Notes under the pieces: model-generated
Databases searched by the model: none
What the model saw: the letters and a program-made list of their open reading frames with translations, nothing else
What the model was told of the DNA's origin: nothing
Assembly (NCBI GenBank): GCA_009777535.1
Contig: WRLP01000001.1
Location: 47,631-111,630, forward strand
Length of the DNA: 64,000 nucleotides
Source: Treponema sp.
GTDB taxonomy: Bacteria; Spirochaetota; Spirochaetia; Treponematales; Breznakiellaceae
Direction of reading: 5' to 3'
In this document: positions 6,005 through 64,000 of the stretch, in pieces
Numbering within the stretch: position 1 is the first letter of the stretch
Layout of the letters: every line of letters starts with the position of its first letter
Translations under genes and position numbers: made by a program

Positions 6005-6113
6005 GATTACTTATATTGCATTTCTTTTTTTTCGACAATGTTGCCGGCTATTCGGGCTGTTTTAACTGAAACTAAATACCCCCCCCAAGCGTTGATTTTT
6101 TATCTTTTTTCTG

Positions 6114-32991: not shown

Positions 32992-33050
32992 ACTAATGCA
33001 TATCTCATCTGCGCGCCATATATATTCATATAACTTTTTGGAGGTTGTGC

Positions 33051-34040: not shown

Positions 34041-34041
34041 T

Positions 34042-34698: not shown

Positions 34699-35264
34699 TG
34701 AAAAACTTCATTATCAAAATTATATTTTTTTCTTTTTTTGCAATGCTGCTGCTTTCTTGTGAGGGGCTGCCAATTAATTATTCGCGAAGCCAATCATGGC
34801 TTCTTCCCAAAGCCGGCAGCGAAGAAGCGCAGGGCAAAACCTGGACAACCCTTTGTATTTTAAATGTGAGTGTAGACAGAACCGGAGGCTGGGATTCGGT
34901 GGAAAAGGAAACCGCCGGTCTTGCGCCGTTTTACTTTTGGAAAAGGGGCTGCCGTGTAGTCAGCGCCGGTGAAGCGCCTGTTTATGCGGCGGAGATTCAG
35001 GTAAGGGAAAGGGAATTCGGTCTTGGGTGGCGGACGAAGAGATCCCTGGCTGTGGAAGTTCGTATATGGGCTTATGGTGATGCGCCCGGGCCGGACACTG
35101 CACCAGTGGAAAGAAAGGCGCCGCTGGCTGCCGGAAGGGTTACTGCCATGGGGGAAAGGAGTTTTTCTTCATCGGATACAACTGGCCGCCTGCTTTCCAG
35201 GGCAATCAGCAAAGCGGCAAGAAAATTGGCTGTGTACGAAAGGAGCCTCTTAAATGCGAACTAA
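34698..35264 (+). CDS. Lipoprotein, unknown function
   Basis: It has lipobox LLSC. Its ATG overlaps the upstream TAA. Confidence 0.65.
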   Translation: MKNFIIKIIFFSFFAMLLLSCEGLPINYSRSQSWLLPKAGSEEAQGKTWTTLCILNVSVDRTGGWDSVEKETAGLAPFYFWKRGCRVVSAGEAPVYAAEIQVREREFGLGWRTKRSLAVEVRIWAYGDAPGPDTAPVERKAPLAAGRVTAMGERSFSSSDTTGRLLSRAISKAARKLAVYERSLLNAN

Positions 35265-40991: not shown

Positions 40992-40998
40992 GAAAATT

Positions 40999-43900: not shown

Positions 43901-44082
43901 TCGCATTGTTGCCGCTGGTCATAAGGCCGCTTATGAATTCACAGAAATCAATGGCGGCGGCAATGATGGGAGGGCTTGCCGCATCGACTATCCTTAGTCT
44001 TTTTGTTATTCCGCCGGTTTTAATACGGTTTTTTAAATGGAGATTCCGTAAGGGCGAAAATTTCCCAGGAGGGAGCAGATGA
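40999..44082 (+). CDS. RND-superfamily efflux transporter permease (AcrB-like), divergent
   Basis: 1,027 aa with the 12-TM, two-large-loop pattern. N-terminus FVRRPVTVIMI...; TM4 region GIGLVSDVSVIV. Confidence 0.85.
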   Translation: MHGLINLFVRRPVTVIMILSALLIAAGFSVSKLPLDKLPEFSVPRVNVETVYSGMAAGDIRALVTIPVEDALSPVKGLQRIRSISRDNYSLISMDFRWGTDPMTAAVLVREAIDAVYPGLPEGVHKPIVTSAEANNEPHAIVSVYSRNNGGSFARNLAEYELRTRLRRIDGASSVILVGGEVAEEQLQLDVSRLAALGLSPQEFTRLLSQEAADIPAGTAREGKTELIVVSSGRPDSVSELRSMILPLGAGTLKAGDAGSFITAAGRRDSIFVHNGIEAAALEIYRRPGADPVRLSREIQKVVKESNSLFSRDADVQLVYDSTPSLTAGIKGLLISAGLGAAAVIFVLIIFIRRVLYSLLVAFSIPVSAAAGICVLFILGKSLNGMSLGGLALGIGLVSDVSVIVLDLLCSSFDNKNNRPEPQEISKITATIAGSSFASTMTTILVFAPIIFLPGPLGSLFGDIAITLVVSVFTGWLYAQFCLPSLYRMFFKYGMTANIQKPIKLKYLSMLNNINPEKKYRSILIHSLRRPVKIFTVAALASAIGALILLLQPVTFIRADEAEEVRISAVFPSGTLPEAMSNAGTEISRIVSGLPMVETVFGRAGAENEDVGRRAEIDYRREELILSCTLKRGARPAEAVTQINSALEQFFDREFSYYVHLPRDRTEVLLGLSSHNSFVVSGKDREEALDRCALVENFFNTAAVPALIKSGGQRPELRMYPNREAAAYLALPAINIAETLYTLNEGVVAVTLEIEGRPLDVRVTGAGADNSAEEISFLENIPLKTPEGKTVFLGSVGRVERRETEAALARLDRSDVVYMDIAAAAGKTAVKLIKEITSRHSWFSGADESVFSLYRNSLIVFVLLVLILLYMAMGAQFESFLLPVILMMSIPLSLSGAGPALLISGAGVDSGAVMGLAALFGLVVNNSLVLFEISEEKINQGVPVSGAVYTGACERLRAVLITALTTVFALLPLVIRPLMNSQKSMAAAMMGGLAASTILSLFVIPPVLIRFFKWRFRKGENFPGGSR

Positions 44083-47000
44083 CGCATTTTTCTTCCTGGC
44101 TTGGCAGAAAAAAAATGAGCCTTTGCATTCTGGCCGGCATTTGTTCCGTATCGTTATGCGTCATTATTGCTTCCGGTGAAAAAACTGATTATAACGCCGG
44201 AAGTTCTTTTGTTGTAAAAATAAAACATTACGGGCTTAATGCCGCTGAAATTGAGCGGAGCATCAGCATTCCCCTGGAAGATTCGCTTTCGGCAATTGCC
44301 GGTGTGCAGACTGTTCAGAGTTCCAGCGAAAACAATAATTCCAGGGTTTTTATCCGCTTTGATAAGAGGGGAAGAGGAAGATATGAAGCTGTCCGTGACG
44401 CCGTCCAAAGGGTATATGAATCCCTGCCTTCTTCCGTGCAGCGGCCGGAAATCTTAAGTTCAGGTAATTCCAGAATTCCGGTCTGGTCTGCCGCAGTGCT
44501 ATTTCAGGATGGCGATGATGACAGCAATGCTGCCAGGGTAATGGAAAGGATAATAAAGCCAAGACTCGAAAGCATTGAAGGAGCAGGCGAGGTTTTTGTA
44601 TCGGGAACAGGCCTAAAGGAAATAGAAATAATTCTGGATCAGGAAAAACTTGCCGCGCTGGGGCTTGACCAGGCCGCTGTAGCCGCTGCGCTGGCTATGA
44701 ACGATGCGCTGTTTTCGGGCGGAGTCCTTGTGCGGCAGGGCAGGGAAATAATCGTTACAGTAGACGGGCGTTATGATACATTTGCATCCTTTGACGGCCT
44801 TGCCAAAGCGCTGATTCCGCTGGGAGGGGGAAGGGCGGCGGCGCTTTCAGAAATTGCCATGATAGCCGAGCAGGAAAGAATGCCGGAAACTCTTTCCAGG
44901 TTAAATGGAAAAAAGGCCGTTGTAATTTCCATTATGGGAAACCATGACGCGGACTTGCGCAGGCTTTCTAAAAACATAAAAAAAGAACTTGCCGCCCTGC
45001 CCACCGGCGTAGAATTCATTGTTCTTTCCGATTTGGGAGCCGAGGAAGCGGCTGCGTTCCGTTCGGTCTTTAACGCCGCACTGTTGGGCGCATTTCTTGT
45101 AGCCATGATCAGTTTTTTCCTTAACAGAAAAAAAGCGGGTAACACGGCTCTTGCGTTTAACCATGCCGGTTTTTTCTGCGCCCTGATCGTTCCGTCAATT
45201 TGCCTTATATCAACTGCCCTGTTGTCAATCTGCGGCTTTCCTGCAAATCGTTTGGTACTGGCGGGAATAGCAGCCGGAGTCGGCACGGCAGTTGATTCGG
45301 TAATACTCTGCACCGAAAAACTGCGCAAGTGCAGGTCTTACCGGGATGCGTCCGGCTGTCTTGCTGAACTGCGCTCTCCACTGATCGCAGGGGCAATGAC
45401 CACTGTAATCGTTCTGCTTCCGCTATCGGCAATTGACGGAACAGGAGTAATCGCTTTTGCCATTGCGGCGGTTACACTAACGGCCCTTGTAATTAGTCTT
45501 ACTCTTCTGCCCCCATTGCTTCTCTGGGGCATGGGCTCCGCTAAATCAAGTTACTGCATATCAAAGCAAAATACCCGGTTGTCCGGCCGTGTTTACCGGC
45601 GCTTTTTAAGAATTTTATGCAGATTTATAGCTGCAGAAATCAGGCTGTGCGTGCGTTATCCGATACGGGTATTGCTTTCTGCATTTTTGCTTGCCGCTTC
45701 GGCGGTAGTTATGTTTTTCGTTAAAGGTGTGGATACCGGCAGCTATGGTTCCGGAAACTCGGTCTATGCCCAGGTTGAATTTGAAGGAGGCCTGCTTGCC
45801 GAAGAAGCGGATCGCATACTTGCGGATTACGGTGGTAGACTGGCAGCCCAAAAAGGAATTAAAAATGTTGAAACCAGCGCAAGGACAGGCTCGGGATCAG
45901 TTTTAATATCCTTCGATCCCAGGATCTTAAAGGCGCATGATGTCCGTGAACTCGCCGGAAGTATTCCCGTTTTTGACGGCTTTATATTTTTTCCCGAAAA
46001 TTCCGCAAAAGACCGGCACTGGGAGATCAGGGTTTCAGGGGACGAGGAGCAAAAATGCAGAGAGCTTGCAGAAGAACTCGCGCACCTCAGCACCGGCCTA
46101 AAGCTGATTCGGGGGCAGGTTCTTAACTTTAAGAGCGGAAGTAAAAAGCTGCTTCTTTCGCCCGATCGGGAAATGTTAGCGGCGGCGGGGATTGTTTTTT
46201 CCAGTGCTGCCGGCAATCTTCGCATGGGCGTGCATGGGCCTGTTGTATATAAAAGGGTGAATTCTGAAGGTGAAGTTGATGTCCGCCTTAGAACAGGCGG
46301 CTGCGATTATTTTGATAAAATGGCCGGCGTTATGCGCATGCAAACAAGAGATGATGCTCTTGGCTCTCTTGTTTTTAATGCAAACAGCGAAACCAATGCC
46401 GCATATCAGATTAAAACACTGATGAAAACAAGGGAAGAAGTTGAAAGCGCGAGCATTAGGAGGGTCGACCGACGCCGGACAGCTTCCATTACCGTAACCA
46501 CATCTCCAATGGATCCCAGGCGTGTAAAACAATCTCTTGGCGATCTTTATAAATACCTGGAACTGCCACCCGGATACTCTATTGTATTCGACCAGCAGGC
46601 AATCAGCCAGGCAGAGGCATTGACAGGAACTGTCCTTTCACTTGTGTTGGCTGTTGTTTTTTGCTATATGGTTATTGCAGCAATTAACGAATCGTTTGTT
46701 GTTCCGCTAATCGTGCTTTCCGCGATTCCGCCCTCGCTTGCGGTTCCGGGCATCTGCATTGTTCTGACAGGCGGAGCCTTCAGTCTTCCAGCGGCCTGCG
46801 CCTTTATTGCCGTCAGCGGCATGACAGTTAACGCCGCGGTGCTTTGCATCGACGGAATAAGGTCGGTGGTTTGCCAGGACAATTCTGAAGTCTGCGTGGG
46901 TTTTTATCGCGTTATTCGCCAGAAAATGCCCGCCCTGTTGGCTACAACCGGTACAACAATTGCCGGAGCGCTGCCCTTCCTGTTCCTTAGTGAAGATTCC

Positions 47001-47180
47001 AACACACTGATAAGAACCCTTTCGTTGGTGGGGGCGCTTGGTGTAGCAAGCTCATGTTTTTGCGCAATTAGCATTGTTCCCGCGTTTTCTTTGATGCTAA
47101 GGAAATACTTAAAACCTGTTTTACAAAAAAATATTCCGCTTGTGCGGAAGAAAAAATTATTTTCGGAATGTTTAATATGA
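44079..47180 (+). CDS. RND-superfamily efflux transporter permease (AcrB-like), second paralogue
   Basis: 1,033 aa with AcrB-like topology. TM4 region GVGTAVDSVILCTE. Its start overlaps the upstream stop (ATGA). Confidence 0.85.
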   Translation: MTHFSSWLGRKKMSLCILAGICSVSLCVIIASGEKTDYNAGSSFVVKIKHYGLNAAEIERSISIPLEDSLSAIAGVQTVQSSSENNNSRVFIRFDKRGRGRYEAVRDAVQRVYESLPSSVQRPEILSSGNSRIPVWSAAVLFQDGDDDSNAARVMERIIKPRLESIEGAGEVFVSGTGLKEIEIILDQEKLAALGLDQAAVAAALAMNDALFSGGVLVRQGREIIVTVDGRYDTFASFDGLAKALIPLGGGRAAALSEIAMIAEQERMPETLSRLNGKKAVVISIMGNHDADLRRLSKNIKKELAALPTGVEFIVLSDLGAEEAAAFRSVFNAALLGAFLVAMISFFLNRKKAGNTALAFNHAGFFCALIVPSICLISTALLSICGFPANRLVLAGIAAGVGTAVDSVILCTEKLRKCRSYRDASGCLAELRSPLIAGAMTTVIVLLPLSAIDGTGVIAFAIAAVTLTALVISLTLLPPLLLWGMGSAKSSYCISKQNTRLSGRVYRRFLRILCRFIAAEIRLCVRYPIRVLLSAFLLAASAVVMFFVKGVDTGSYGSGNSVYAQVEFEGGLLAEEADRILADYGGRLAAQKGIKNVETSARTGSGSVLISFDPRILKAHDVRELAGSIPVFDGFIFFPENSAKDRHWEIRVSGDEEQKCRELAEELAHLSTGLKLIRGQVLNFKSGSKKLLLSPDREMLAAAGIVFSSAAGNLRMGVHGPVVYKRVNSEGEVDVRLRTGGCDYFDKMAGVMRMQTRDDALGSLVFNANSETNAAYQIKTLMKTREEVESASIRRVDRRRTASITVTTSPMDPRRVKQSLGDLYKYLELPPGYSIVFDQQAISQAEALTGTVLSLVLAVVFCYMVIAAINESFVVPLIVLSAIPPSLAVPGICIVLTGGAFSLPAACAFIAVSGMTVNAAVLCIDGIRSVVCQDNSEVCVGFYRVIRQKMPALLATTGTTIAGALPFLFLSEDSNTLIRTLSLVGALGVASSCFCAISIVPAFSLMLRKYLKPVLQKNIPLVRKKKLFSECLI

Positions 47181-50100
47181 AAAATTTCTATTTCGATAAA
47201 ATTACAGCCGCCGTTTTGACGGTTATTTTGGCAGTTGGTATGCTTCCGGTAAATGGGTTTACCCAGGCATTTCCGGCTCCTTCGCCGTCTTCAAAAACTT
47301 CAGATTCCCTTTATGATGTCCGGGGTTTTGACAGAACGGTCTTTGATTATCACTTTAGCAGAGCCGACAGGGAACTGAGTCCGGATCGCTGGCTTGCGGA
47401 AGCGAAGCAGGGTATTAATATGGCAATTTGCGCCTGGGAATTATTTGCTTCGTCTTTATATGACAATCCTTTTCTTCTCCAGGGGGCAAGGGCAAAAATA
47501 GAAAAGTGGAGCGGCGAAGAACTCGAAGAGCGTTTTTCTGAATGGCTCGCCGGCCGTTTTTTCGGCGAAGCTGTCGAAAATGCCATGACCGGAATATCAG
47601 GACTGTTAGGCGATACTCAAAAACAGTACACATGGCATTTGGATACGGCTGGAAATATTATTCTGGAGGATAAGACAGGAGATCCCCTTGTAATACGGCC
47701 ACACGAGAGTGCGTTTATATTTGATTTGGAAAAATGGAAAAACGATGCGGCGAACCATATTAATTCGGAAAGTGCTTTTTTTAATGACGCGTTAACCGCT
47801 CTTTATCCGGAACTGCTGGCTTATATGCCGGCTGAACTGCGCCAAAGCATGAATTCGGTGATTCTTGGAACCGGCTCAACCTTAAAAAATTTTGTTAAGA
47901 GGGAATTTGAAAACATTGCCGCAAGGGAAGAGCGCCTGTTTATCAGCCGGCGGACAAGAGATGTATGGAGTCTGCGCAATAAAAGCGATGAGGAGGCGGC
48001 AAGGATCGTTACCGAAAGGCTGATAAGTGAAGCTGAAGAAGTATGTATAAGGGGAATTAATGATTTAAACACAAAAATTGAGGAAGCTTCCGCCGGCACC
48101 GGGGATCTGGCTTTTTTGGGCGAAGAATGGCTGCGAATGTATCAGGAACAGTTTGACAGGGGGCTGCGGGCCTGGGAAGATGCGGAAGAAAGATTTTTTA
48201 TCAGGAGAATCGAGTGGGAGCAGGAGTCGCTCAGACTTTTCTCCGAGGGAGAAGATGTCTGGCTTGCGGCTTATCATCAGTTGGAGGAAGAGCGCAGGAA
48301 GTGGGAATTAAAAGCAAAAGAGTTATTCGAGTCCGGTGAAGCGTTGTTCATGAATATTTCAGAAAATCTGGAGAAGGCGATTACTGCCGCAAGGGCCGAA
48401 TTTGAATATAACATGGCAATGCGGATTGGAAGCGGGGCCGCAAAAGCCAAGGCCCTGGTCGATATGTACCTGACCAGCGGCTCTGCGGCTTTGACTATCA
48501 GGGATAACATTCTGTTTTGGCAGAAACAGATTGCGTACGGTGATCCGCCGGATCCATCGGAGGCCCGTTTTTCCCAATGGCTTGCCGGTGAAAGACTGAA
48601 TTTTTGGATAAAGGCAGAAACCAATGAAAAAAGGTGGATTGGATATGACGATTATGTTGAACAGCTGGAAGCATTAAATTATATTATAATAACAACAAGG
48701 GATCCGGCGGAAAAAGCTTTCGCTACAGTAAACTACAATAATTTGTATAACAGATTTATTGCTGCCCAAATATACTTAATTCAAATTCAGGACATTATTG
48801 AAGATATCGTTGCCGGAAAAACAGTAACAGATGCGGAATTTGAATTTGCAGAGGGTAATGGTTCATTGGGCCTTTTTGATCGCGCCCGTTTTAATAATAT
48901 TTCGGAAATAACCAAATTATATGAGTTATATCTTTCGTACATGGCCAGAGCAACAGAAACAAGAGAAATAATTATTGAAGATTTCAGTGAGTTAATGGGA
49001 ACCGGAGCGCTGAAAGATATTATTTCGCCTAATGCATCAAGCGAAGATTTTTGTCTCGATGAGTACCAGCTGGAGCTAATCAGGGCAAAAGCGCTCGTGC
49101 TGTACTGGGAACGAAAGACATACATTGCAGAAGCGGTATCCGCCTATGCGAAGGATCTGAGCGCCGGAAGAGTTACAGAGGCGGAAGGAATACAGGCCTG
49201 GGAAAACGCCAAAACCGCCTACAACGAGTCACTGGAGAGGTATGAGACAGAGTTAAACCTGTTAGCCGAAGCCGGCGAAGACATGAAAAACATGCAAAAA
49301 AAGCTGGACAGTTTAAACGCTGAGTTAAAGTATGCTGAAGAAAAGTTAAATAAAATGAATTCCGATTATTCCGCTATTATTGCCGCTTCCATTACCGATC
49401 GTGAGGATCAGCTGCGGCTGGAATTAGATGCAAAGTATAATTTTCTTGTTACGGAATACAGACTGCTGTCTCCAAATGGCGGCGCTTCAGTCTATAGTGC
49501 AGCCCTGAATTATGGCATGAATATGGAGAGAGCCTGGCGGATTGAAAATGCCCAAATTGCCCTTTTTGATCTTGTTAATGGAAAGAACGAAGGTGTCGGC
49601 GTTGATGCATTATCTTTATATGAACTTAAAGAAAGAGTTCTTGCCGGACTTGAATCAGAGGTTAGCTTAAGAATTCGTCTTGCCGGTATTAATTTATTTT
49701 CTGATACATTTGACGGCTATCTAAGGTCCCCGAATTCTTCTTACAGTAGTGCGGATTGGTATTCTGGTGTGAAAGGTATTGCCCACACTTATGAATTGGC
49801 AAGGTCCCTGTATGGTGAAAAATTAGGGGAGCAGCTTATTGCCGATTATAAAAACAGTTATTCTATCCTGATAGAAACCCGGCTTGCCCTTGAGATTGAT
49901 GCCCTTGATTTTTTTCTTTATGGAGATTCAGAGCCGGAAAGCATTTCGGAGCTTTTGTCTGAAAGCTGTCTTGTTGATGATATTACCGCCGCAGAGCTTC
50001 TTGAAGTGTTAATAGCTTTTCGAGACAGGCTCAACCACGGAGAAGGGTTTTATTCTTATAACGACGATGAAAATGAAATTATTTACCGGTTCATCTCAGG

Positions 50101-53100
50101 AGAATCTTCCTTTACCGGAACGGAAAATATTGTTGCTGAATTAATAAATGAATTTAATTTCTCCCTTGGCTTGCTGGAATTGTACAGTGAATACGCTTTG
50201 TTTGGTTCATTTACAGCGTGGGAACTGTGGCAGAACACGCTTGTGTCGCTGGAAAGGTTTTTTTCCGAATATGGCCTGGCACTGAATGGAGAATACCTGC
50301 CTGACGCCGATAGAATTTGCGCAAAAATATTCGGGCAATCCGGGAATTTTCTCAATAATGCAGCGGAATTCCTGCGGAATTTTGAACAGTGTTTTCTTTT
50401 TGTACCGGAATGGCTGGAATATGAACTGGATATCTGGAAAACATATTTAATCGATTATATTGCAGCTTATGCGGTGTATTTGGGAAGGCAGCCTTTGGAA
50501 CATTCATCATATTTTGAATCTGAATTGGATAATATGGAGGGCCGGTACAATTTATTTTACGAGAACATCAATTCTATGCGATATATCGATGATTTGTCGA
50601 TGGATAAAATAGAATACGATTATTTAACACTTAAAAACGAAAATATATTGCTCGCTTATAAATATCAGATTGCCGTGGTCTTGGAAAAAATTTCCAAAGA
50701 ATCGGATAACGCAGGTTATGAGAAACATTGGCGCCGGTTCTTATCTGGTTTTTATATTAACAGTATTGATTCCGCGGCTTCTGGTGTTTCTTCATGGAAT
50801 GAGGGTGTAATGCTTGATGCCCTGGAAAAGGCAGTATTTTCTACCGGCCGAATGAATATCGCCTTGGCCATGTACTCTCAAATAAATAATGACATAGTAA
50901 CGGCCAATTCAGAAATACTTTACGGTTTGTATCATAACGAAAATTTAAAGATAGAGCACGGTTTTTCGAGCCTGGATTTTCAGAGAACTGAACTTGCCCG
51001 TCTTGGCAGGGCTTATGATTATTCAAAAATACCATCTATCGATTTAACGGTTGAGGCGGAAAAACATTATGAGGCGCTTGGAATCCAGGAAAATATTTTT
51101 TACGCGCTATGGGATGATTATCTGGCAGAGGCTGAAGAATTTGTTAAAATTGGCAGCCTGTATGACAATCAATACGGCAGACTAAAGTATGCTTACAATA
51201 ATACGGAAAGGCTGCGCTTTGAATATGAAAAACAGGATGCAATTCGAAGATGGGCAAGCACAGCATATCTAGATGCGGGTAATATCGATCTTCTGAACAG
51301 TAAAGATAGGCTTGCCAGAGCGCAAATGGTATTAACTGTTTTGTCAGACATATATGACAATGAAGAACGGCGTCAATATGATAATCCTGAATATCAGGCG
51401 CTGTACCTTAATTACGAACAGTGGTTTAACAATAAGCTGGTAATTGCAAAAACCTATGACGCTCTTCAGTCGTTGATAGGGGAAGAAGCAATAAAAAATA
51501 ATGATATTTACTCACAGTATAATTCAGTGCTTGCAACTCTCGGGCAATGGACATTTCAACACGACTATGACGGGTATAATTCTTCGGCGGACCAATCGCA
51601 GTGGTCAGTTAAAGATATTATTACCGTAAAAAACGGTCAATTGGCATTTTCCAGAGACGAGATGACTCTAACAGGAGTAAATGATTCCAAATCAAAACTT
51701 TTAAATGATTATTTTACATCATCTTATGTTGTCTCCGGCGAAAAGCACATTGTAAGTCAATTTGAAGAATCTGTCAGAAGTTTAAGCCAGAGAATGACCG
51801 GCTATTTCATGAATGCGGAAAAATTTAATCAATGGGGGCTTGCAAGGGATTATCTGATATCTTCCATGATTGCCGCAAACGGAAATTTAAAGTTTTTGTC
51901 AGGTTATTATACAGGAGCCGGAGAACTGGCCGATGGCGGCAGCTTAGGTAGACTGTCTTTCAAATATTCACCGGTTGATAGAACCGAAACAGTCAGGTCT
52001 GCCGCTCATAACAACAGTTCATTTTATAACTCCCTAAGAAACCCGCAAGCCATGCTGAAAAATGCCTGGGAAGGTTTAAGCGAACAGGAAAAAGCCGATC
52101 TTGAATTTTATATTATTCTGACATTGTCCGGCAGGTTCAACAATTATGCAGGCGGGTTTTCGATGATACATACGCTTGATGTTTATCAGAAGGGATACAA
52201 TTTTGTAAGGGAATATTATAAAAAAGCAGATAAAATATGTAATGATCCATTGAAGCTCGGCGGTCTTGGGATATGGAAAGAAATGAGGGATATAAACAAG
52301 ACAACAATGAATCGAATAAATACTGTTCTTAATGAAACAAAGAAAATTGTAGAAACATGGAAACTTGGATTAGCTGAAAATTTAAGGCAAATATCATTGT
52401 ATGCTTCTGAATATACCAGGTCCTGCGCAGAACTGGACGAAATAGAAAAGACACAACCGGATGGACAAAGGATTGTATGGCAGGATATCGAAGATTCTGT
52501 TTCCTGTTTAAAAACGATTTCTGATTATGAAATTACAATTCTGGAAAGTTGCTGGAAAAAAATGCTTGTGGAAACCGGCAGGGCATATACCAGTGTCCCG
52601 GCTGCAATTGCCGATCTGCTTGGCTGGGCAGGGAATACCGAGGTATTAAGCAGGCAGGCTCTGGAATATTTTTGGATTGCTGATGAACAATCACGCAAGA
52701 AGGCGGAAATTGATTTTCGCCTGGCGCAGGAAGCTTATTTTTCCGATGAAATAAGCATAGATACTCTAGAGGCTGCCGCAGAAAATGCTTACGGAAAAAA
52801 CTCCGCAGCATGGAAAAATCATCTTGAAAATTTAGGAAACACAATGATAAGGGATCTGGGCAGTTATTTAAATTCCCACTCAAGTTATTATACGGAGTTT
52901 CAGGCTCTTGGGGAAGATTTGGTTGCCGTAGTTGCAAGGACGCTCCACAGTCGTTATGCGGCGGAACTTGCCGGCAGAGATAACGAATGGAATCTGCAGC
53001 GCATGGACATAGCTGAAAAATATATTGAGTGGCAGATGCTTGCGAAACGGCTTGTGGAAAATGGCAGAAATGACTGGGATAACGGCGTTCAGAAAATAAC

Positions 53101-56100
53101 AGAGGCTCATAGGCAATGGAATGAAAATTTCGTAAACGAATACAACCGGGTAAGCGCTGAGTGGACGGAAACTTATCTGGCCGGGCTGGAAGATAAAAAG
53201 AAATGGCTGGAAATGGTTGGCAATGCGGCAGATAACGCGGCATCCTCCGCCTTTCTGTCTCTTGTCGGCGCTGAGGCGGAACGAATGGCGAGATCAATAG
53301 AAACCAGGGAACCGTTTGGTCTTCGTGATATTGAAGTTGATGCGGATGATCTTCTGGCGGAACTGCTGAACAGTTCCGGAATCCGCAATATGACTAGTGC
53401 ATTTGCTTCAATTAACGCAATTTCCGAAACCGGATCCATCGCGGTCAGGAGGGGTATTGGCGGCTTATCGTCATGGGACGCATCTCTTGCCAGGGCGGCT
53501 GCCGGAGATTTGGCCCGAAAAACCAATTCACAGCTGGCTGCCCAGGAATCCGCAAAACTTGCTTTAGTTACCCGTAATATAGCCGAAGAGGCTGTTAAAA
53601 ACCTTGTCTCCAGCGTGGATTCCGCAAACAATGATTTTCGTGAAAGCATGGACGATACTTTTATCTTTAAGGGGCTTTGGAGAAGGAGCGGAAATAATTA
53701 TGTGAAAGATATAATAATGGGTTCTACCCTTTTTGAACCTGTAATCACAGAAAGAAAAACCATTGCAGGATATTCTGATTACCGGATGGATCCGGTAGAA
53801 CTCAAGGTAAACCTTGATGAAAAATACCTGGCAAGCCTGGACACTCTGGCTCTCAGGAGCATAATGGAAAGTGTCTATCAGGAACTGGAATCCATTGCAA
53901 AAGAAATATTCGGAAATAATTCTGGCCCCGAAAAAATAATCAAACAGGGAATAATTTACAAACGTTCCGGCAATACCAGGGAATCAATGTATGAGGAAGT
54001 ATTGATTGATCTAGAGGAGCGCGATCTTTTTCCGGGAAAATTCGGCGCTCATATCGGATATAGACCGGCAGTAAAGCCCGGTGATCTGAATGGAAATAAC
54101 AAAAATACAATGTTCCATGATCAGGGCAGCGGAGAGCTGGGGCGCCTAATGACCCAGTTCATATATTGGGCAGTAATCGACGGGAAGGGAAGCGCCGAAA
54201 TTTACACGGCCACATGGGAAAAACGCATGTGGGACGACAGCGGCAGCTCATTTGAGGCGCCCAGCCTTCGTACAGCGCTGCAAATAGCCGGTACGGTTGC
54301 GGCCGCAGTTGTTTCGATAGTGGCGGCGCCGTTCACCGCGGGGGCAAGTACTCTGGGCCTGGTTGGATTAATGGCTCTTAATGTCGGCATTACTTCCACC
54401 AGCGAACTGGTTTTCAATGCTCTTGATGTGGGTTATGGCCATAAGACATTTGGTGAAGCGGGTTTTAGTTTTGGAAAGACAACTTTGATAAATACAGTCA
54501 GCAGCGTTGGTTCGGGGGTTTTTGGCGGTGTAGGAAACGCCGGCTTTATTGCCGGCCAGGGGCTTACAAGCGCGGCTGTTGGCACGGCAGCAGGTTCTGC
54601 TGCGGCTACAGTGGCTGTTCAGACTACAATGGCCGGTGTGCAGACCTTTACCACCGGATTGCTAACCAATGCCATAGGCGGAATTAATTACAGCCGTGAA
54701 GGAGGCTGGAGCTACTCGGTGCAGAGCGACAGCGGAAAAGGTCTGCTGATAAACACACTGTCTTCCATGGGGGGAGCCTTTACTACCGGGGCATTCCAGG
54801 CTATTAACACCGGAACCGTTGGAGAAAAAGTTGTGGGCTTTTCCGGATTAAACAGGGAAGACATTGCAAGGCTGAACGGCCTGGCCGGTTCCCTTGCCGG
54901 CGAAGGAATTAATTTTGCCTTTGGAGGTGATTTTACATTAAATTTACTGAATATAGGCTTATTTACAGACAGCAAGTATAACAGCGGGCTGCTGGAATTG
55001 CATATTGGCCGTGACGGTTCCCCGACAATGAACCTTGGAACCGGCGGTGCGAATATCAGCCCTGAAAATATATTAGCGGCCTTTAGGGGCGCGCAGGTCT
55101 GGAATATGAACAACCAAATTGGCAGGTATGGGAGGGATAATGATTTTGACGCATTGATTGCATTAAGGGCGCAATACGGATTTGGCGACTCAACGCAGGT
55201 GGAACAACTCCGCAACATTCTGAACAAAATAGACGAACTATGGACTGAAAGCGGTCAGGGGTATGATGCAAAAACAGAAATGATTGACGGTGTGCGTGTT
55301 GTAAGGCTCGGCAATTATCAGGCTGGAATGAGTGTGGAAGAACAAATGCGCCTTGCCGCGATTCTTGGGCATGAGGCGTACAGAGATGGCATAATTTCAC
55401 CGGATGATTTCGCAGAACTCAAGGATGCATCAATCGCAAGAATACTAATGGGAGACCGGATAAATCAGGACTATCAGTGGTTTTATGCCTATAATGTTGA
55501 TTTTGGTTTCGAGAGTTTCCTGTATGGTATGGCGGAATTATCAGGGTATTTTGAACTGCTTGATAATTATCTGCAGTACACCTACAAAAATGAGGAAGAC
55601 TTCTTTTGGCAATGGGCAAGTACGGGAGGCAATTTCCAGTCTATGGATGAACTAAAAAGCATACCGCTCCTGAACTCAATGTCTGTGGCTAAAGTAGATG
55701 AAATTAACGACGAAAGGTTAGATACTGCATTTGATAAATATAAAGAAGACCTGGCAAAAGAAGAAGACTATACCGGTGATATTGCGGATTTTGTATCAGA
55801 AAAAGGGACAGATGATGTATTAAAAGAAGCTTTTAAAAATGATGCGGGGCTTTTGAGTAAATATGAATATGATCCTATACAAATAGAGTCGATTTATTCA
55901 GATGGCTGCATGTTCATGTCGACAAAATACGGGCTGGAGGCAATTACCGGGAAACAGTTTGATACACTCTGGTTCAATGAGTATATAAAAAATAATAATC
56001 TATACGATGGTGAATCCGATCTTTCAAAATATTTAATGGCCGAAATTATGAACCGCCTTGCAGGAAACCAATATAATGTAACTCTTGTCCAAACGGGTCT

Positions 56101-56446
56101 TCCGGATGCGGCCAGGTTATTTGAATACGGACAGGCAGGTGATATGTATCTTGCCCATCTGCGGATAAAAGAAAACGGGACTGGCGGGGGTTATCATTCT
56201 GTGATGGTTTCCGGCATCGAATACACTTACGATATTATGGGAAATGTTACTGGTATAAGCGCTGTCAATGTAGCGAATCCCTGGGGCAAGGGCAGCTTTA
56301 CCGGAAAAACCAGTTACACAATGGATCAAATTGCCCGCTGGGATATTTTCAGGGTAACCCAGCAAGGACCGTTAACCACGGTAATAAGAGTTCCAAGTTT
56401 TAGGGACAAATTACAGTCTGGGTATTATTATACATTACCTTTTTAG
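47168..56446 (+). CDS. Giant secreted protein (3,092 aa): signal peptide, ~2,300-aa helical region, Gly-rich hydrophobic module, C-terminal papain-like Cys/His domain
   Basis: A single uninterrupted ORF. The alternative start at 47177 forms ATGA with the RND stop. N-terminal signal peptide: KITAAVLTVILAVGMLPVNGFTQA. Confidence 0.85.
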   Translation: MFNMKNFYFDKITAAVLTVILAVGMLPVNGFTQAFPAPSPSSKTSDSLYDVRGFDRTVFDYHFSRADRELSPDRWLAEAKQGINMAICAWELFASSLYDNPFLLQGARAKIEKWSGEELEERFSEWLAGRFFGEAVENAMTGISGLLGDTQKQYTWHLDTAGNIILEDKTGDPLVIRPHESAFIFDLEKWKNDAANHINSESAFFNDALTALYPELLAYMPAELRQSMNSVILGTGSTLKNFVKREFENIAAREERLFISRRTRDVWSLRNKSDEEAARIVTERLISEAEEVCIRGINDLNTKIEEASAGTGDLAFLGEEWLRMYQEQFDRGLRAWEDAEERFFIRRIEWEQESLRLFSEGEDVWLAAYHQLEEERRKWELKAKELFESGEALFMNISENLEKAITAARAEFEYNMAMRIGSGAAKAKALVDMYLTSGSAALTIRDNILFWQKQIAYGDPPDPSEARFSQWLAGERLNFWIKAETNEKRWIGYDDYVEQLEALNYIIITTRDPAEKAFATVNYNNLYNRFIAAQIYLIQIQDIIEDIVAGKTVTDAEFEFAEGNGSLGLFDRARFNNISEITKLYELYLSYMARATETREIIIEDFSELMGTGALKDIISPNASSEDFCLDEYQLELIRAKALVLYWERKTYIAEAVSAYAKDLSAGRVTEAEGIQAWENAKTAYNESLERYETELNLLAEAGEDMKNMQKKLDSLNAELKYAEEKLNKMNSDYSAIIAASITDREDQLRLELDAKYNFLVTEYRLLSPNGGASVYSAALNYGMNMERAWRIENAQIALFDLVNGKNEGVGVDALSLYELKERVLAGLESEVSLRIRLAGINLFSDTFDGYLRSPNSSYSSADWYSGVKGIAHTYELARSLYGEKLGEQLIADYKNSYSILIETRLALEIDALDFFLYGDSEPESISELLSESCLVDDITAAELLEVLIAFRDRLNHGEGFYSYNDDENEIIYRFISGESSFTGTENIVAELINEFNFSLGLLELYSEYALFGSFTAWELWQNTLVSLERFFSEYGLALNGEYLPDADRICAKIFGQSGNFLNNAAEFLRNFEQCFLFVPEWLEYELDIWKTYLIDYIAAYAVYLGRQPLEHSSYFESELDNMEGRYNLFYENINSMRYIDDLSMDKIEYDYLTLKNENILLAYKYQIAVVLEKISKESDNAGYEKHWRRFLSGFYINSIDSAASGVSSWNEGVMLDALEKAVFSTGRMNIALAMYSQINNDIVTANSEILYGLYHNENLKIEHGFSSLDFQRTELARLGRAYDYSKIPSIDLTVEAEKHYEALGIQENIFYALWDDYLAEAEEFVKIGSLYDNQYGRLKYAYNNTERLRFEYEKQDAIRRWASTAYLDAGNIDLLNSKDRLARAQMVLTVLSDIYDNEERRQYDNPEYQALYLNYEQWFNNKLVIAKTYDALQSLIGEEAIKNNDIYSQYNSVLATLGQWTFQHDYDGYNSSADQSQWSVKDIITVKNGQLAFSRDEMTLTGVNDSKSKLLNDYFTSSYVVSGEKHIVSQFEESVRSLSQRMTGYFMNAEKFNQWGLARDYLISSMIAANGNLKFLSGYYTGAGELADGGSLGRLSFKYSPVDRTETVRSAAHNNSSFYNSLRNPQAMLKNAWEGLSEQEKADLEFYIILTLSGRFNNYAGGFSMIHTLDVYQKGYNFVREYYKKADKICNDPLKLGGLGIWKEMRDINKTTMNRINTVLNETKKIVETWKLGLAENLRQISLYASEYTRSCAELDEIEKTQPDGQRIVWQDIEDSVSCLKTISDYEITILESCWKKMLVETGRAYTSVPAAIADLLGWAGNTEVLSRQALEYFWIADEQSRKKAEIDFRLAQEAYFSDEISIDTLEAAAENAYGKNSAAWKNHLENLGNTMIRDLGSYLNSHSSYYTEFQALGEDLVAVVARTLHSRYAAELAGRDNEWNLQRMDIAEKYIEWQMLAKRLVENGRNDWDNGVQKITEAHRQWNENFVNEYNRVSAEWTETYLAGLEDKKKWLEMVGNAADNAASSAFLSLVGAEAERMARSIETREPFGLRDIEVDADDLLAELLNSSGIRNMTSAFASINAISETGSIAVRRGIGGLSSWDASLARAAAGDLARKTNSQLAAQESAKLALVTRNIAEEAVKNLVSSVDSANNDFRESMDDTFIFKGLWRRSGNNYVKDIIMGSTLFEPVITERKTIAGYSDYRMDPVELKVNLDEKYLASLDTLALRSIMESVYQELESIAKEIFGNNSGPEKIIKQGIIYKRSGNTRESMYEEVLIDLEERDLFPGKFGAHIGYRPAVKPGDLNGNNKNTMFHDQGSGELGRLMTQFIYWAVIDGKGSAEIYTATWEKRMWDDSGSSFEAPSLRTALQIAGTVAAAVVSIVAAPFTAGASTLGLVGLMALNVGITSTSELVFNALDVGYGHKTFGEAGFSFGKTTLINTVSSVGSGVFGGVGNAGFIAGQGLTSAAVGTAAGSAAATVAVQTTMAGVQTFTTGLLTNAIGGINYSREGGWSYSVQSDSGKGLLINTLSSMGGAFTTGAFQAINTGTVGEKVVGFSGLNREDIARLNGLAGSLAGEGINFAFGGDFTLNLLNIGLFTDSKYNSGLLELHIGRDGSPTMNLGTGGANISPENILAAFRGAQVWNMNNQIGRYGRDNDFDALIALRAQYGFGDSTQVEQLRNILNKIDELWTESGQGYDAKTEMIDGVRVVRLGNYQAGMSVEEQMRLAAILGHEAYRDGIISPDDFAELKDASIARILMGDRINQDYQWFYAYNVDFGFESFLYGMAELSGYFELLDNYLQYTYKNEEDFFWQWASTGGNFQSMDELKSIPLLNSMSVAKVDEINDERLDTAFDKYKEDLAKEEDYTGDIADFVSEKGTDDVLKEAFKNDAGLLSKYEYDPIQIESIYSDGCMFMSTKYGLEAITGKQFDTLWFNEYIKNNNLYDGESDLSKYLMAEIMNRLAGNQYNVTLVQTGLPDAARLFEYGQAGDMYLAHLRIKENGTGGGYHSVMVSGIEYTYDIMGNVTGISAVNVANPWGKGSFTGKTSYTMDQIARWDIFRVTQQGPLTTVIRVPSFRDKLQSGYYYTLPF
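54270..55060 (+). other. Gly/Ala/Thr-rich hydrophobic (glycine-zipper-like, possibly membrane-inserting) module of the giant protein
   Basis: IAGTVAAAVVSIVAAPFTAGASTLGLVGLMALNVGI...VGSGVFGGVGNAGFIAGQGLTSAAVGTAAGSAAATVAV... Confidence 0.5.
55860..56443 (+). other. C-terminal papain-fold (C39-like / NlpC-P60-like) cysteine peptidase-type domain of the giant protein
   Basis: The candidate nucleophile is Cys in SDGCMFMS (codon 55907-55909). The candidate His is in GGGYHSVMVSG (56195-56197), followed by VANPWG (Asn/Asp position). Confidence 0.5.
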
Positions 56447-60509: not shown

Positions 60510-60688
60510 GCTGAGACCTCCATGAAACCATCATAGTAACAAGATCGCGAATAAACAAGTAGACAAAAATGAAAACTTTGTCAATATAAAAGGCGGTAGG
60601 TTGTTAAAAGAGTAGAATTAATGCGGGCTGGTGCTTGCACCTTTTTGTAAATTTTTAGTCAAAAGGTTTAAATTTTATAAAATAAATG

Positions 60689-60697
60689 TGATATAAT
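60689..60697 (+). promoter_or_regulatory. Candidate extended -10 promoter element (TGaTATAAT) for the FN3 lipoprotein gene
   Basis: TGATATAAT at 60689-60697. An AAGGAG RBS at 60744-60749 lies 6 nt before the ATG at 60756. Confidence 0.4.
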
Positions 60698-60755
60698 CGC
60701 CATAAGAGGAAGCTTGGGTTTTTGAAAGATTATTCGAATAAAAAAGGAGCAAATT

Positions 60756-63700
60756 ATGAGAAACAGTATTGTTATTGACAAAGGAGACGGTAGTATGGTA
60801 AACTGCAATAGACCAGTCCCCAGTCCCCAGTCCCCAGTCCCCAGTCCCCAGTCCCCAGTCCACTTCAAAAATAGTAGATTCTTTGCAATTCTTGCTGTTT
60901 TAGCACTGACTCTGGCGTTTATTGGCTGTCCGGACGACGGCGGCAGCGGGAGCGGCTCCAGCGAAAAAATCATTGACAGTATATCTATCACGATGCCGGA
61001 CAAGGAATTTTTCGTCATTGATGAAGATTTAGATGAAGCAGCCCTGCGGCTCCTGTTTGAAGACTTCGTAATAACTGTCAATTACGTTGATGGTACGAGC
61101 CAGCTTGTTGGGATTGAAAACTGTGTTGTTACAGGTTTTGATCCTGATAAAGAAGGCGAACAAGAAATAACCATAAGATATGGGGGCAGAGGCGGCAAAA
61201 GTGTAACCTTTACAGTATACGTTTACTCCGCCGAAAATTTTGTTCCCGTAGAAGGAATCAGTCTTGATAAAACAGAGATTACGATACCTGCCGGCGGTTC
61301 TGAAACCCTTGAACCGTTATTTGATCCCGATGACGCAACCGAAAAGCGCGTAAGGTGGGAGAGCGATAATCCCGCTCTTGCCGCCGTTGACGCTTACGGC
61401 GTCATCACTGTACCGGAAGGGGCTGCGGGAGGCACCGCAGTCATAACCGTAACCACCGTTGACGGCGGTCATCAGGCAGCATGTGTTGTTACCGTGACGA
61501 CAGACGGTGAGCCCGTACAGGACCTTGAAGACCTGGCTGTGGATTTAACAGCCGGAGACGGCAGGGTAACGCTTGCTCCGCAGGCGGCAGCAGAAGGTTT
61601 CGTCTTTTATTACAATAAGAGCGCTGCCCCTGTTGCGGCGCCGGCTTACGGTGCGGCGATCACTACAATTACAGGAGCTGCCGTATACATCACTGTAACA
61701 GACATTGCCGGAACGAACGGCACGCCAATATTCGTACAGGTTTACAAGGTAGAAACAACGGATAATACTATAACAGGCTTTGGGCAGAATGATGCAACGC
61801 CGGTAACGACTCCGTCGGCGCCCGGCAGCTTTACGGCAACAGCGGGTAATGCCCAGGTTATTCTTACATGGGTGAAGTCCGGCGACGGCGGCAGCGTGAT
61901 TACGAAGTATCAGTATTCCTATGGTGCTGCAGGCGGCTATACGCAAAACTGGATTGACATTCCCGGCTCTAACGCAGATACCACTACCTGCACTGTAACC
62001 GGTCTTGCGAATGGCACAAGCTACACATTTGAAGTGCGAGCGATTAACGCCATTGGAAACGGCGCAAGCTCCGGTACACAGACAGCGGCGCCTACGCCGG
62101 CTGCGACAGAACCGGCGCCGCCCAGCGGCTTTACGGTAACTGTGGGCAACGCTCAGGTTACGCTTTCATGGACAACGCCCAGCAATGGCGGCAGCGCGAT
62201 TACAAAGTATCAGTATTTATACAATCCTGGTTCGCCAACATGGACGGACATTCCCGGTTCAGGGCCGGGCACTACGAGCTATACTGTAACAAGCCTGACT
62301 AACGGCACAAGTTACACTTTCGAGGTGCGCGCAGTTAATGCCATTGGTAACGGGACAAGCTCCGGCCAGCAAATAGCAACGCCGGCAACAACGCCCGCTG
62401 CGCCAGGCAGCTTTACGGCAGTGTCTGGCAATGGTCAGGTTACGCTTTCATGGGCAACGCCCAACAATGGCGGCAGTGTGATTACAAAGTACCAGTATTC
62501 TTATGGTGCTGCAGGCGGTTATACGCAAAACTGGACTGACATTCCCGGCTCTAACGTAGAGGCCACGAGCTATACTGTAACAAGCCTGACTAACGGCACA
62601 AGTTACACCTTTGAAGTGCGCGCGGTGAATGCCATTGGAAACGGCGCAAGCTCCGGCACACAGACAGCGACGCCTACGCCGGATGCGACAGTACCGGCGG
62701 CGCCCGGCGGCTTTACGGCAGTGCCGGGTAACAGTCAGGTTACGCTTACTTGGACGACGCCCGGTAACGGCGGCAGCGCGATTACAAAGTACCAGTATTC
62801 TTATGGTGCTGCAGGCGGTTATACGCAAAACTGGACTGACATTCCCGGCTCTAACGTAGAGACCACGAGCTATACTGTAACAAGCCTAACTAACGGCACA
62901 AGTTACACCTTTGAAGTGCGCGCGGTGAATGCCATTGGAAACGGCGCAAGCTCCGGCATACAGACAGCGACGCCTACACCGGCTGCGACAGCACCAGCGG
63001 CGCCCGGCGACTTTACGGCAGTGCCAGGTAACAGTCAGGTTACGCTTACATGGACGATGCCCAGTGACGGCGGCAGCGCGATTACAAAGTATCAGTATTT
63101 GTATGTTCCTGGTTTATCGACATGGACTGACATTCCCGGTTCAGGTGCAGGTACTACTAGTTATATAGTAACAGGCCTCGCAAACGGCACAAGTTACGCC
63201 TTTGAGATCCGCGCGGTAAATGCAGTGGGAAATAGCACAAGTTCCGGCTCGCAAACGGCAATGCCGGCAACAACGCCTTCAGCTCCTATCGGTTTAACAG
63301 CAACGCCGGGTGCCGGGCAGGTTACACTTTCGTGGGCGACGCCAAACAACGGTGGCAGCGCGATTATAAAGTATCAGTATTTGTATGTTCCTGGTTTATC
63401 AACATGGGCTGACATTCCAGATTCAGGTGCAGGCACTATAAGTTATATAGTAACAGGCCTCGTAAACGATACAAGTTATACCTTTGAGGTTCGCGCGGTA
63501 AACGCGGCTGGCAATGGAACAACTTCCGGCCAGCAGACAGCTACGCCTACACCGGATGCGACAGTACCGGCGGCGCCCGGCAGCTTTACGGCAATGCCAG
63601 GTAACAGTCAGGTTACGCTTACATGGGCGACGCCCGGTGACGGCGGCAGCGCGATTACGAAGTATCAGTATTTATATAATCCTGGTTCGCCAACATGGAC

Positions 63701-64000
63701 GGACATTCCAGGTTCAGGGCCGGGCACCACGAGCTATACTGTAACAAGTTTAACAAATGGTACAAGTTACACTTTTGAAGTTCGTGCGGTGAATGCCATT
63801 GGTAACGGTGAAAGCTCCGGCCAGCAACAAGCGACGCCGGCAACAACCCCTTCCGCGCCAGGCAGCTTTACGGCAGTGCCGGGTAATGGTCAGGTTGTTC
63901 TTTCATGGGCTGCCCCTTCAAATAACGGTGGGTCGGCTATTACCGGTTACGAAGTTTCAAGCAACAGTGGCGGGACATGGGTATCGGCCTCAAGCGATAC
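60756..64000 (+). CDS. Large surface lipoprotein with a Big_2 Ig-like domain and at least 8 tandem fibronectin type III repeats (partial, runs off the right edge)
   Basis: I translated it by hand and the frame is open from the ATG at 60756 to the window end. It has no stop, so it is absent from the ORF track. Lipobox LAFIGC; Big_2 at ~61245-61500; FN3 units such as APGSFTA..GN.QV.L.W..P..GGS.ITKYQY...SYTFEVRAVNAIGNG. Confidence 0.85.
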   Translation, partial: MRNSIVIDKGDGSMVNCNRPVPSPQSPVPSPQSPVHFKNSRFFAILAVLALTLAFIGCPDDGGSGSGSSEKIIDSISITMPDKEFFVIDEDLDEAALRLLFEDFVITVNYVDGTSQLVGIENCVVTGFDPDKEGEQEITIRYGGRGGKSVTFTVYVYSAENFVPVEGISLDKTEITIPAGGSETLEPLFDPDDATEKRVRWESDNPALAAVDAYGVITVPEGAAGGTAVITVTTVDGGHQAACVVTVTTDGEPVQDLEDLAVDLTAGDGRVTLAPQAAAEGFVFYYNKSAAPVAAPAYGAAITTITGAAVYITVTDIAGTNGTPIFVQVYKVETTDNTITGFGQNDATPVTTPSAPGSFTATAGNAQVILTWVKSGDGGSVITKYQYSYGAAGGYTQNWIDIPGSNADTTTCTVTGLANGTSYTFEVRAINAIGNGASSGTQTAAPTPAATEPAPPSGFTVTVGNAQVTLSWTTPSNGGSAITKYQYLYNPGSPTWTDIPGSGPGTTSYTVTSLTNGTSYTFEVRAVNAIGNGTSSGQQIATPATTPAAPGSFTAVSGNGQVTLSWATPNNGGSVITKYQYSYGAAGGYTQNWTDIPGSNVEATSYTVTSLTNGTSYTFEVRAVNAIGNGASSGTQTATPTPDATVPAAPGGFTAVPGNSQVTLTWTTPGNGGSAITKYQYSYGAAGGYTQNWTDIPGSNVETTSYTVTSLTNGTSYTFEVRAVNAIGNGASSGIQTATPTPAATAPAAPGDFTAVPGNSQVTLTWTMPSDGGSAITKYQYLYVPGLSTWTDIPGSGAGTTSYIVTGLANGTSYAFEIRAVNAVGNSTSSGSQTAMPATTPSAPIGLTATPGAGQVTLSWATPNNGGSAIIKYQYLYVPGLSTWADIPDSGAGTISYIVTGLVNDTSYTFEVRAVNAAGNGTTSGQQTATPTPDATVPAAPGSFTAMPGNSQVTLTWATPGDGGSAITKYQYLYNPGSPTWTDIPGSGPGTTSYTVTSLTNGTSYTFEVRAVNAIGNGESSGQQQATPATTPSAPGSFTAVPGNGQVVLSWAAPSNNGGSAITGYEVSSNSGGTWVSASSD
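60813..60861 (+). repeat. Perfect heptanucleotide tandem repeat (CCAGTCC)x7 inside the 5' coding region
   Basis: It is 49 nt, counted base by base. It lies between the start codon and the signal-peptide hydrophobic core and lipobox. Confidence 0.9.
61818..64000 (+). repeat. Tandem ~275-300-bp coding repeats (FN3 modules), several with long identical nucleotide stretches
   Basis: Unit starts are near 61818, 62115, 62398, 62698, 62998, 63283, 63579 and 63853. For example, 62508-62560 and 62808-62860 are nearly identical. Confidence 0.85.

Follow-up and report, generated by a model that had tools for sequence, protein, structure and literature searches.

What does a perfect heptanucleotide repeat do when it lies between the start codon of a gene and the signal peptide that the gene encodes? 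The question is raised by a locus in a 64,000-nucleotide stretch of Treponema sp. DNA (GenBank assembly GCA_009777535.1, contig WRLP01000001.1, positions 47,631 to 111,630 of the forward strand), hereafter the window, in which seven copies of CCAGTCC stand near the 5' end of an open reading frame (ORF) for a large, putatively surface-exposed lipoprotein. The organism is probably a gut-associated Treponema other than T. pallidum. A first-pass annotation, made from the letters of the window, had taken the array for a likely slipped-strand phase-variation switch, and this proposal is supported both by the frame logic of the gene and by a one-unit difference between near-identical genomes. The array is, thus, probably a slipped-strand translational phase-variation (contingency) switch for the lipoprotein, a reading that rests on a perfect array, on start codons upstream of it, on alternative frames that are closed by stops, and on a natural pair of alleles in which seven copies are ON and six are OFF.

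The Heptanucleotide Array and Its Reading Frame

The array consists of (CCAGTCC)x7 arranged head-to-tail, and its perfection, already described in the first-pass annotation, is confirmed by direct reading and by Tandem Repeats Finder (period 7, 7.0 copies, 100% matches, score 98). It is the sole perfect tandem repeat with a unit of 2–12 nt in the window, where perfect repeats of 1–12-nt units were otherwise limited to A, T, and C homopolymers of 8–9. Moreover, a two-unit probe (14-mer, up to one mismatch) found matches confined to the array in the window and none in 100 dinucleotide-preserving shuffles. The array is far beyond chance and a strong outlier. Being perfect, with a unit that is not a multiple of 3 and with enough copies, it has the features of a slippage-prone simple sequence repeat (SSR). 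All six frames of the unit are free of stop codons, and the three sense frames all give a PSPQSPV period; the residues that the array encodes in the ON frame are PVPSPQSPVPSPQSPV (aa 20-35). The elements that set the reading frame are the following, where n is the number of copies:

60744..60758, plus strand: Shine–Dalgarno sequence AAGGAG (60744-60749), a 6-nt spacer, and ATG 60756-60758 (Met1).
60782..60797, plus strand: second Shine–Dalgarno sequence AGGAG (60782-60786), an 8-nt spacer, and the in-frame ATG 60795-60797 (Met14).
60799..60811, plus strand: stops directly ahead of the array, TAA 60799-60801 in the frame of 60757 and TAG 60809-60811 in that of 60758.
60813..60861, plus strand: (CCAGTCC)x7 heptanucleotide array (sequence, Tandem Repeats Finder, and perfect-repeat scan).
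60872..60903, plus strand: OFF-state stops, TAGTAG 60872-60877 for n = 2, 5, 8, and so on, and TAG 60901-60903 for n = 3, 6, 9, and so on.

From ATG 60756, the ORF is open to the end of the window, over more than 1081 aa, and the nearest in-frame stop on the 5' side of this codon is TGA 60723, 33 nt away. The first-pass annotation had regarded ATG 60756, with its AAGGAG, as the only well-supported start; the ribosome-binding site and the position of the start are borne out, but the word "only" is not, given that ATG 60795 has an AGGAG of its own. Both starts lie 5' of the array, and the argument is unaffected by the correction. Because of TAA 60799 and TAG 60809, upstream starts in the two other frames cannot read into the gene. 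On the 3' side of the array, a scan for in-frame ATG, GTG, and TTG codons found none as far as the lipobox, as had been claimed, and the near-cognate in-frame codons that follow the array (ATT at codon 45 and CTG at codons 51 and 53) all fall within the hydrophobic core. With no in-frame start between array and lipobox, export of the protein requires that the array be translated. The first-pass annotation had named a translation start after the repeat as the finding that would speak against its own proposal; the sequence argues against such a start, and a reading of the array as 5' untranslated region (5' UTR) ahead of a downstream start was rejected, since no canonical in-frame start follows the array.

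When alleles with other copy numbers were simulated, the gene was ON at n = 1, 4, 7, and 10 and otherwise OFF, with peptides of 27–60 aa. This agrees with the earlier statement that seven copies are in frame and that four or ten would be ON too, and it adds n = 1 to the series. Likewise, both shifted frames soon run into a TAG, as predicted: one unit more leads to TAGTAG at 60872-60877 and one unit less to TAG at 60901-60903. The repeat is, in short, a 5'-proximal coding one, downstream of the start, in which a change by one unit truncates the product.

A Six-Copy Allele in a Near-Identical Genome

A comparison of copy number between strains or metagenome bins, suggested in the first-pass annotation as a check, gave a difference of 7 versus 6. 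The window was compared with the whole of a 36.6-kb ENA metagenome contig (ERZ27257348:k141_960827; pieces L121, L134, and L132), which had been retrieved through an exact-protein match to EtfB, the product of a neighbouring gene. Identity between the two is complete over 34079-57180. There are 4 single-nucleotide polymorphisms over 25254-46642 and a further 5 up to 61472, which makes 9 in ~36 kb outside a mosaic tract considered below, and the ENA contig amounts to another assembly of what is essentially one strain. A single indel separates the two sequences over the 36.6 kb, the loss of exactly one CCAGTCC unit from the ENA contig, so that two alleles with conserved flanks can be set side by side, one of six copies in the ENA contig and one of seven in the window. 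Gene calling on the six-copy allele breaks the gene in two: a 46-aa ORF, equal to the simulated OFF product for n = 6, and a piece lacking the signal peptide, which starts at the equivalent of ATG 60993. One event in a 49-nt tract, set against ~9 substitutions in ~36 kb, would put the rate for the locus thousands of times above the substitution rate per site, on the strength of a single event.

That the six-versus-seven difference is an artefact of assembly or sequencing, and the locus stable, is scarcely credible. It was seen in a comparison of consensus assemblies alone; however, the array, at 42–49 nt, is shorter than one Illumina read and than the k-mer length with which the ENA contig was assembled (k=141), the sequences on either side match completely, the 36.6 kb contain no further indel, and the change amounts to exactly one unit. 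In a third near-identical genome (JGI/IMG 3300002469; L133, L135, and L136), the contigs end at ~58360 and ~60470, short of the array. A termite-gut origin of this sample is no more than a guess from neighbouring IMG identifiers (Table S1 of PMC7024585), which the literature search did not directly confirm. The break of this assembly just before the lipoprotein locus is compatible with allele heterogeneity fragmenting the assembly. A search of metagenome DNA with the 3' flank of the array, ACTTCAAAAATAGTAGATTCTTTGC, gave 0 matches.

In the proposed switch, translation would begin at ATG 60756 and/or 60795 and would read through the array to the signal core and lipobox, while slipped-strand mispairing in replication would gain or lose 7-nt units. 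At copy numbers of 1 mod 3 (1, 4, 7, 10), the lipoprotein would be made with a variable Pro/Ser-rich spacer in its n-region, and this spacer would be cleaved off with the signal peptide. In the other two copy classes, the ribosome would stop after 5 or 14 more codons and nothing would be exported. We infer that the protein is exposed at the surface, that switching is reversible and frequent, that the protein is lost when OFF, and that the ON form is exported despite its long n-region; the selective agent could be phage, the host, or a partner surface.

The Lipoprotein and Its Mosaic Tract

The product of the gene is described by three further features:

60867..60929, plus strand: signal peptide core, comprising KNSR as the positively charged end of the n-region, FFAILAVLALTLAF as the h-region, and FIGC as the lipobox, with Cys58 (assigned by pattern).
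60930..64000, plus strand: mature lipoprotein, running past the end of the window (Pfam scan).
61473..61814, plus strand: mosaic or hypervariable tract between Big_2 and the first FN3 domain (comparison with the ENA contig).

The translation reads ...KNSR-FFAILAVLALTLAFIGC, with Cys58 at 60927-60929, and bears out the view that the array precedes the hydrophobic core of the signal peptide and the lipobox. By pattern, the positively charged n-region, the h-region, and the lipobox Cys of a lipoprotein signal are all present, with a 14-residue hydrophobic stretch between KNSR and FIGC, and the same layout is kept in P0040, an orthologue treated in the next section. The PSPQSPV-rich N-region of 44 aa described in the first-pass annotation is correct as to its period but too long, the n-region ahead of the hydrophobic core measuring 41 aa from Met1 or 28 aa from Met14.

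In the mature protein, Pfam places a Big_3 domain at aa 102-156 (61059-61223) and a Big_2 domain at aa 164-245 (61245-61490), followed by a linker module and, from ~61812, by at least seven FN3 domains. This domain set (lipobox, Big_3, Big_2, FN3x7) fits a putative exposed, adhesin-like lipoprotein. In the DNA, the FN3 domains form a tandem array at 61812-63910 that runs to the end of the window, with a period of 291–300 nt, ~7 copies, and 74–77% identity (Tandem Repeats Finder), and variation in the number of FN3 units through recombination is conceivable.

The same gene also varies in a second way. Within 61473-61814, the window shows 55 nucleotide differences from the ENA contig, which is ~99.97% identical otherwise, and the codon differences comprise 26 non-synonymous and 18 synonymous ones. 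This tract, the only recombinant-looking one in the 36.6 kb compared, resembles a recombination import, and its module is 59–65% identical to repeated modules in large surface proteins on metagenome contigs L122-L124. Array and mosaic tract, thus, concentrate variation on the lipoprotein, as expected under diversifying pressure. The ENA contig stops exactly at the start of the FN3 array, which suggests an assembly break.

An Orthologue without the Repeat

A 158-aa N-terminal query recovered a sole close orthologue, P0040, with 77% identity, from a source labelled Treponema sp. metagenome-assembled genome (MAG); a cluster mate of a flanking protein, with >90% identity, carries the same label, and the flanking proteins thus identify the organism as a Treponema. 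The N-terminus of P0040, MQSKKEYIIKNIKFFTILAILVLTLAFIGC, has a normal n-region of 13 residues and no repeat. Its homology to the window protein begins at KNSRFF, three residues past the array, and the signal core is conserved (KNIKFFTILAILVLTLAFIGC). A hypothetical product read from Met14 through a single heptamer, MVNCNRPVHFKNSRFF, would have 14 aa before FF, against 13 in P0040. To judge from these sequences, ATG 60795 is probably the ancestral start, and the array may have grown out of one native heptamer. Moreover, since P0040 lacks the repeat and has a normal n-region, the array would seem to be a recent, lineage-specific addition that is dispensable for export and function. A 335-aa query matched nothing but generic Big_2 proteins, whose signal peptides are ordinary, and a scan of metagenome proteins gave distant relatives only (37-65% identity over parts), with no repeat in any homologous gene.

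The Same Heptamer in Other Genomes

Scanning genome contigs with (CCAGTCC)x3 yielded at least 120 match loci (L001-L120). Among the matches listed, Nostocales dominate, accompanied by Caldilineaceae, Gemmatimonadota, Flavobacteriales, Acidobacteria, Sphingosinicella, Zobellella, and Proteobacteria, often with two or more loci per genome, and nothing among them is related to the window locus. The listed (CCAGTCC)n arrays have 3–16 copies (e.g., L023 1826-1916, L004, L037 2101-2149, L075, and L090), and most of them look intergenic in a survey of ORF spans; the six loci read directly were all intergenic. Several arrays of these six stand just 5' of a start codon, a few bases before the ATG, and two adjoin arrays of other heptamers (GGCATTA in L023 and GTACTGA in L004). 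In a metagenome contig, L126 (JGI Ga0268262_10021332), two short, imperfect, inverted heptamer arrays at 1028-1062 and 1131-1158 flank ~68 nt of a divergent intergenic region; the second is directly 5' of a TTGACA, and a distant Big_2 lipoprotein homologue follows ~1.2 kb downstream of the pair.

When rotated, CCAGTCC becomes CCCCAGT, which we take to be the unit of the cyanobacterial STRR1 repeats, an assignment for which the literature search gave no direct confirmation. Such (CCCCAGT)n repeats were reportedly described by Mazel and colleagues in 1990, and we know of no established function for STRR. The heptamer of the window is identical to that of STRR1, whereas its setting differs: STRR1 is characterized by many dispersed, mainly intergenic arrays in heterocystous cyanobacteria, and the cyanobacterial arrays recur within a genome and are mostly intergenic among the matches listed, while the Treponema array is coding and stands alone in 64 kb. 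STRR have been used as a typing target (PMC5088731).

The minus (template) strand of the array reads (GGACTGG)7, i.e., G4-N3 repeats with six GGGG runs and ACT loops. It therefore contains the at least four G-runs of at least three residues, with short loops, that are typical of a G-quadruplex (G4), and a four-layer G4 is predicted, with a model energy of -31.6 kcal/mol when quadruplexes are allowed versus -0.8 kcal/mol when they are not (DNA parameters). This raises the alternative that the array acts on DNA or RNA, as a template G4, a transcription-tuning spacer, or a 5' UTR, with copy number grading expression. Besides the predicted G4, such a role would be in line with the promoter-like TTGACA-18-TGgTAAACT (60775-60804), which ends just 5' of the array, and with the arrays of L126 and other genomes that sit just upstream of promoters or start codons. 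However, a transcript starting at ~60811 could not encode the lipoprotein, there being no in-frame start before the lipobox, and the two upstream Shine–Dalgarno starts make the array coding; moreover, the G4 energy is a model value, and a G4 effect could coexist with the frame switch, adding to instability. A role of this kind in place of frame switching is, thus, very unlikely. The promoter-like site itself is a strong sigma-70-like match that falls within the N-terminal coding extension, 8 nt before the array. Considered as a functional promoter, it was judged incidental, given that its transcript would lack a start codon, and it may be a remnant or a product of chance.

A broader and decidedly speculative view would treat CCCCAGT/ACTGGGG arrays as a cross-phylum, self-expanding, G4-prone class that arises near gene starts and includes STRR1. 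This class would span cyanobacterial STRR1, Treponema-associated metagenome contigs, Caldilineaceae, Gemmatimonadota, Flavobacteriales, and Proteobacteria, the window locus being a member that was co-opted from a single native heptamer into a switch and whose instability would be driven by the template G4.

Switch or Hypermutable Accident

The array could also be a hypermutable accident, that is, a self-expanding (STRR-like, G4-prone) repeat whose OFF allele is a broken gene being lost, with no adaptive bet-hedging. This account, which we consider unlikely, would mechanically give the same ON/OFF behaviour as the switch and differs just in whether that behaviour is selected. A number of observations weigh against the switch or in favour of the accident. 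Just two alleles, one ON and one OFF, and a single event are known, and the OFF allele might reflect pseudogenisation, a dead end, instead of a phase in a cycle. The window holds one such array in 64 kb, which leaves a wider set of phase-variable genes unsupported. The n-region of 28–41 aa is unusual before a lipoprotein signal, and the orthologue P0040 does without the array. Finally, CCAGTCC forms mostly intergenic, non-coding arrays in L126 and in many other phyla, and the array of the window may, therefore, originate from a process unrelated to selection for switching.

On the other side, the array has no decayed units, as expected under ongoing turnover plus selection for an intact ON frame. 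It is placed exactly, behind the starts and ahead of the signal core, and stops on both sides close off the two alternative frames; its target is a variable, putatively surface-exposed protein that carries a recombinant tract as well. A selected phase-variation switch, therefore, remains the probable explanation of the locus.

Comparison with Known Phase-Variable Loci

Phase variation through coding repeats is textbook knowledge in Neisseria, Haemophilus, Campylobacter, and Helicobacter. The opa genes of Neisseria carry CTCTT pentanucleotide repeats in the region that encodes the signal peptide, reportedly described by Stern and colleagues in 1986. As in opa, the unit in Treponema is not a multiple of 3 and lies within the coding region of a leader peptide, where copy number sets the frame and slipped-strand events turn the gene ON or OFF. 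However, the opa unit has 5 nt and is part of the hydrophobic core, whereas the Treponema unit has 7 nt and encodes a Pro/Ser-rich spacer of the n-region upstream of the core. Moreover, opa is a multigene family of beta-barrel outer-membrane proteins, in contrast to a single Big/FN3 lipoprotein in a spirochaete, and its switching has been shown experimentally, while that of the Treponema locus is proposed from sequence. In Haemophilus influenzae, lic1 and hgp are tetranucleotide contingency loci, usually with many more copies. They share with the Treponema locus a 5'-proximal coding SSR, a three-state frame cycle (one ON, two OFF), and a place in genes for surface structures, putative ones in the case of Treponema, but they differ in their 4-nt unit and in the alternative ATGs that give two ON frames in some loci, both alternatives being closed by stops in Treponema.

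Within the genus, the tpr genes of T. pallidum provide the comparison. Their poly-G tracts lie mostly in promoter regions and tune transcription. Thus, the two systems share the genus, length variation of simple sequences, and candidate surface proteins as targets; however, the tracts of T. pallidum are homopolymers, whereas the array described here is heptameric, lies within an ORF, and acts on the frame. The length of the poly-G tracts governs the expression of these candidate surface proteins (PMC7864442; PMC11868660), and contingency loci in general, the tetranucleotide ones of H. influenzae among them, are treated in the latter source (PMC11868660). In the Treponema literature searched for a heptanucleotide or other non-homopolymer switch, none was found, just the poly-G tracts of T. 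pallidum.

A coding heptanucleotide repeat controls phase variation of pglE in Neisseria meningitidis (PMC7157529), which resembles the Treponema locus in its 7-nt coding unit and in frameshift phase variation but differs in the sequence of the repeat, in phylum, and in the gene product, pglE encoding a cytoplasmic glycosyltransferase and the Treponema gene a putatively exported lipoprotein. More generally, SSR enrichment near protein N-termini has been taken as a signature of phase variation (PMC3315296).

Promoter Region and Other Features of the Window

The lipoprotein gene is separated from etfB by a divergent spacer that holds its candidate promoter:

60656..60697, plus strand: candidate promoter region, within the AT-rich spacer of 245 bp from which etfB (minus strand) and the lipoprotein gene diverge (inferred from sequence).

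A promoter scan reported TAGTCA-16-TAAAAT at 60656-60683, and an extended -10 element, TGaTATAAT, was read by eye at 60689-60697. The same spacer contains, at 60622-60648 on the plus strand, a terminator-like hairpin with a T-run, with no plus-strand gene upstream of it.

Elsewhere in the window, a C8 homopolymer at 6079-6086 occupies the divergent spacer between a GatZ-like gene (4718-6004, minus strand) and a gene starting at 6202, ~30 nt upstream of a TTGACA, and may be a poly-G/C tract like those of T. pallidum. In the strain of IMG 3300002469, an apparent 43-bp tandem duplication at ~1687-1772 of L133 (29790-29832 of the window), seen as two overlapping BLAST segments, coincides with the splitting of a gene for a solute-binding protein into ORFs of 288 aa and 184 aa, where the ENA strain has a single one of 443 aa; the duplication would be a further gene-inactivating length change between near-identical genomes. 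An ORF at 47168-56446 encodes 3092 aa and is conserved, with 3089 aa, on both sister contigs; a Pfam search gave no match for it at E<=1e-3. It directly follows an operon at 33045-47180 that encodes a TPR protein, an OEP (TolC-like) protein, a HlyD-type adaptor, two Big_5 proteins, and two AcrB-family transporters.

Biological Significance

The locus is very probably an SSR contingency locus; the kind is familiar, its occurrence in this organism new. Its mechanism is unsurprising in itself, and its interest lies in being a clear-cut case, open to direct testing, in a spirochaete that has received little study. It also carries a warning for annotation, as an OFF allele appears in a genome as a 46-aa ORF and a signal-less fragment. 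The recurrence of the G4-prone CCCCAGT heptamer across phyla is unexplained, and the orthologue without an array gives a concrete case for the birth of contingency repeats. For the biology of this Treponema, ON and OFF alleles in near-identical genomes, together with a recombinant tract, mark the lipoprotein as a protein under strong diversifying pressure and make it a natural target for functional work.

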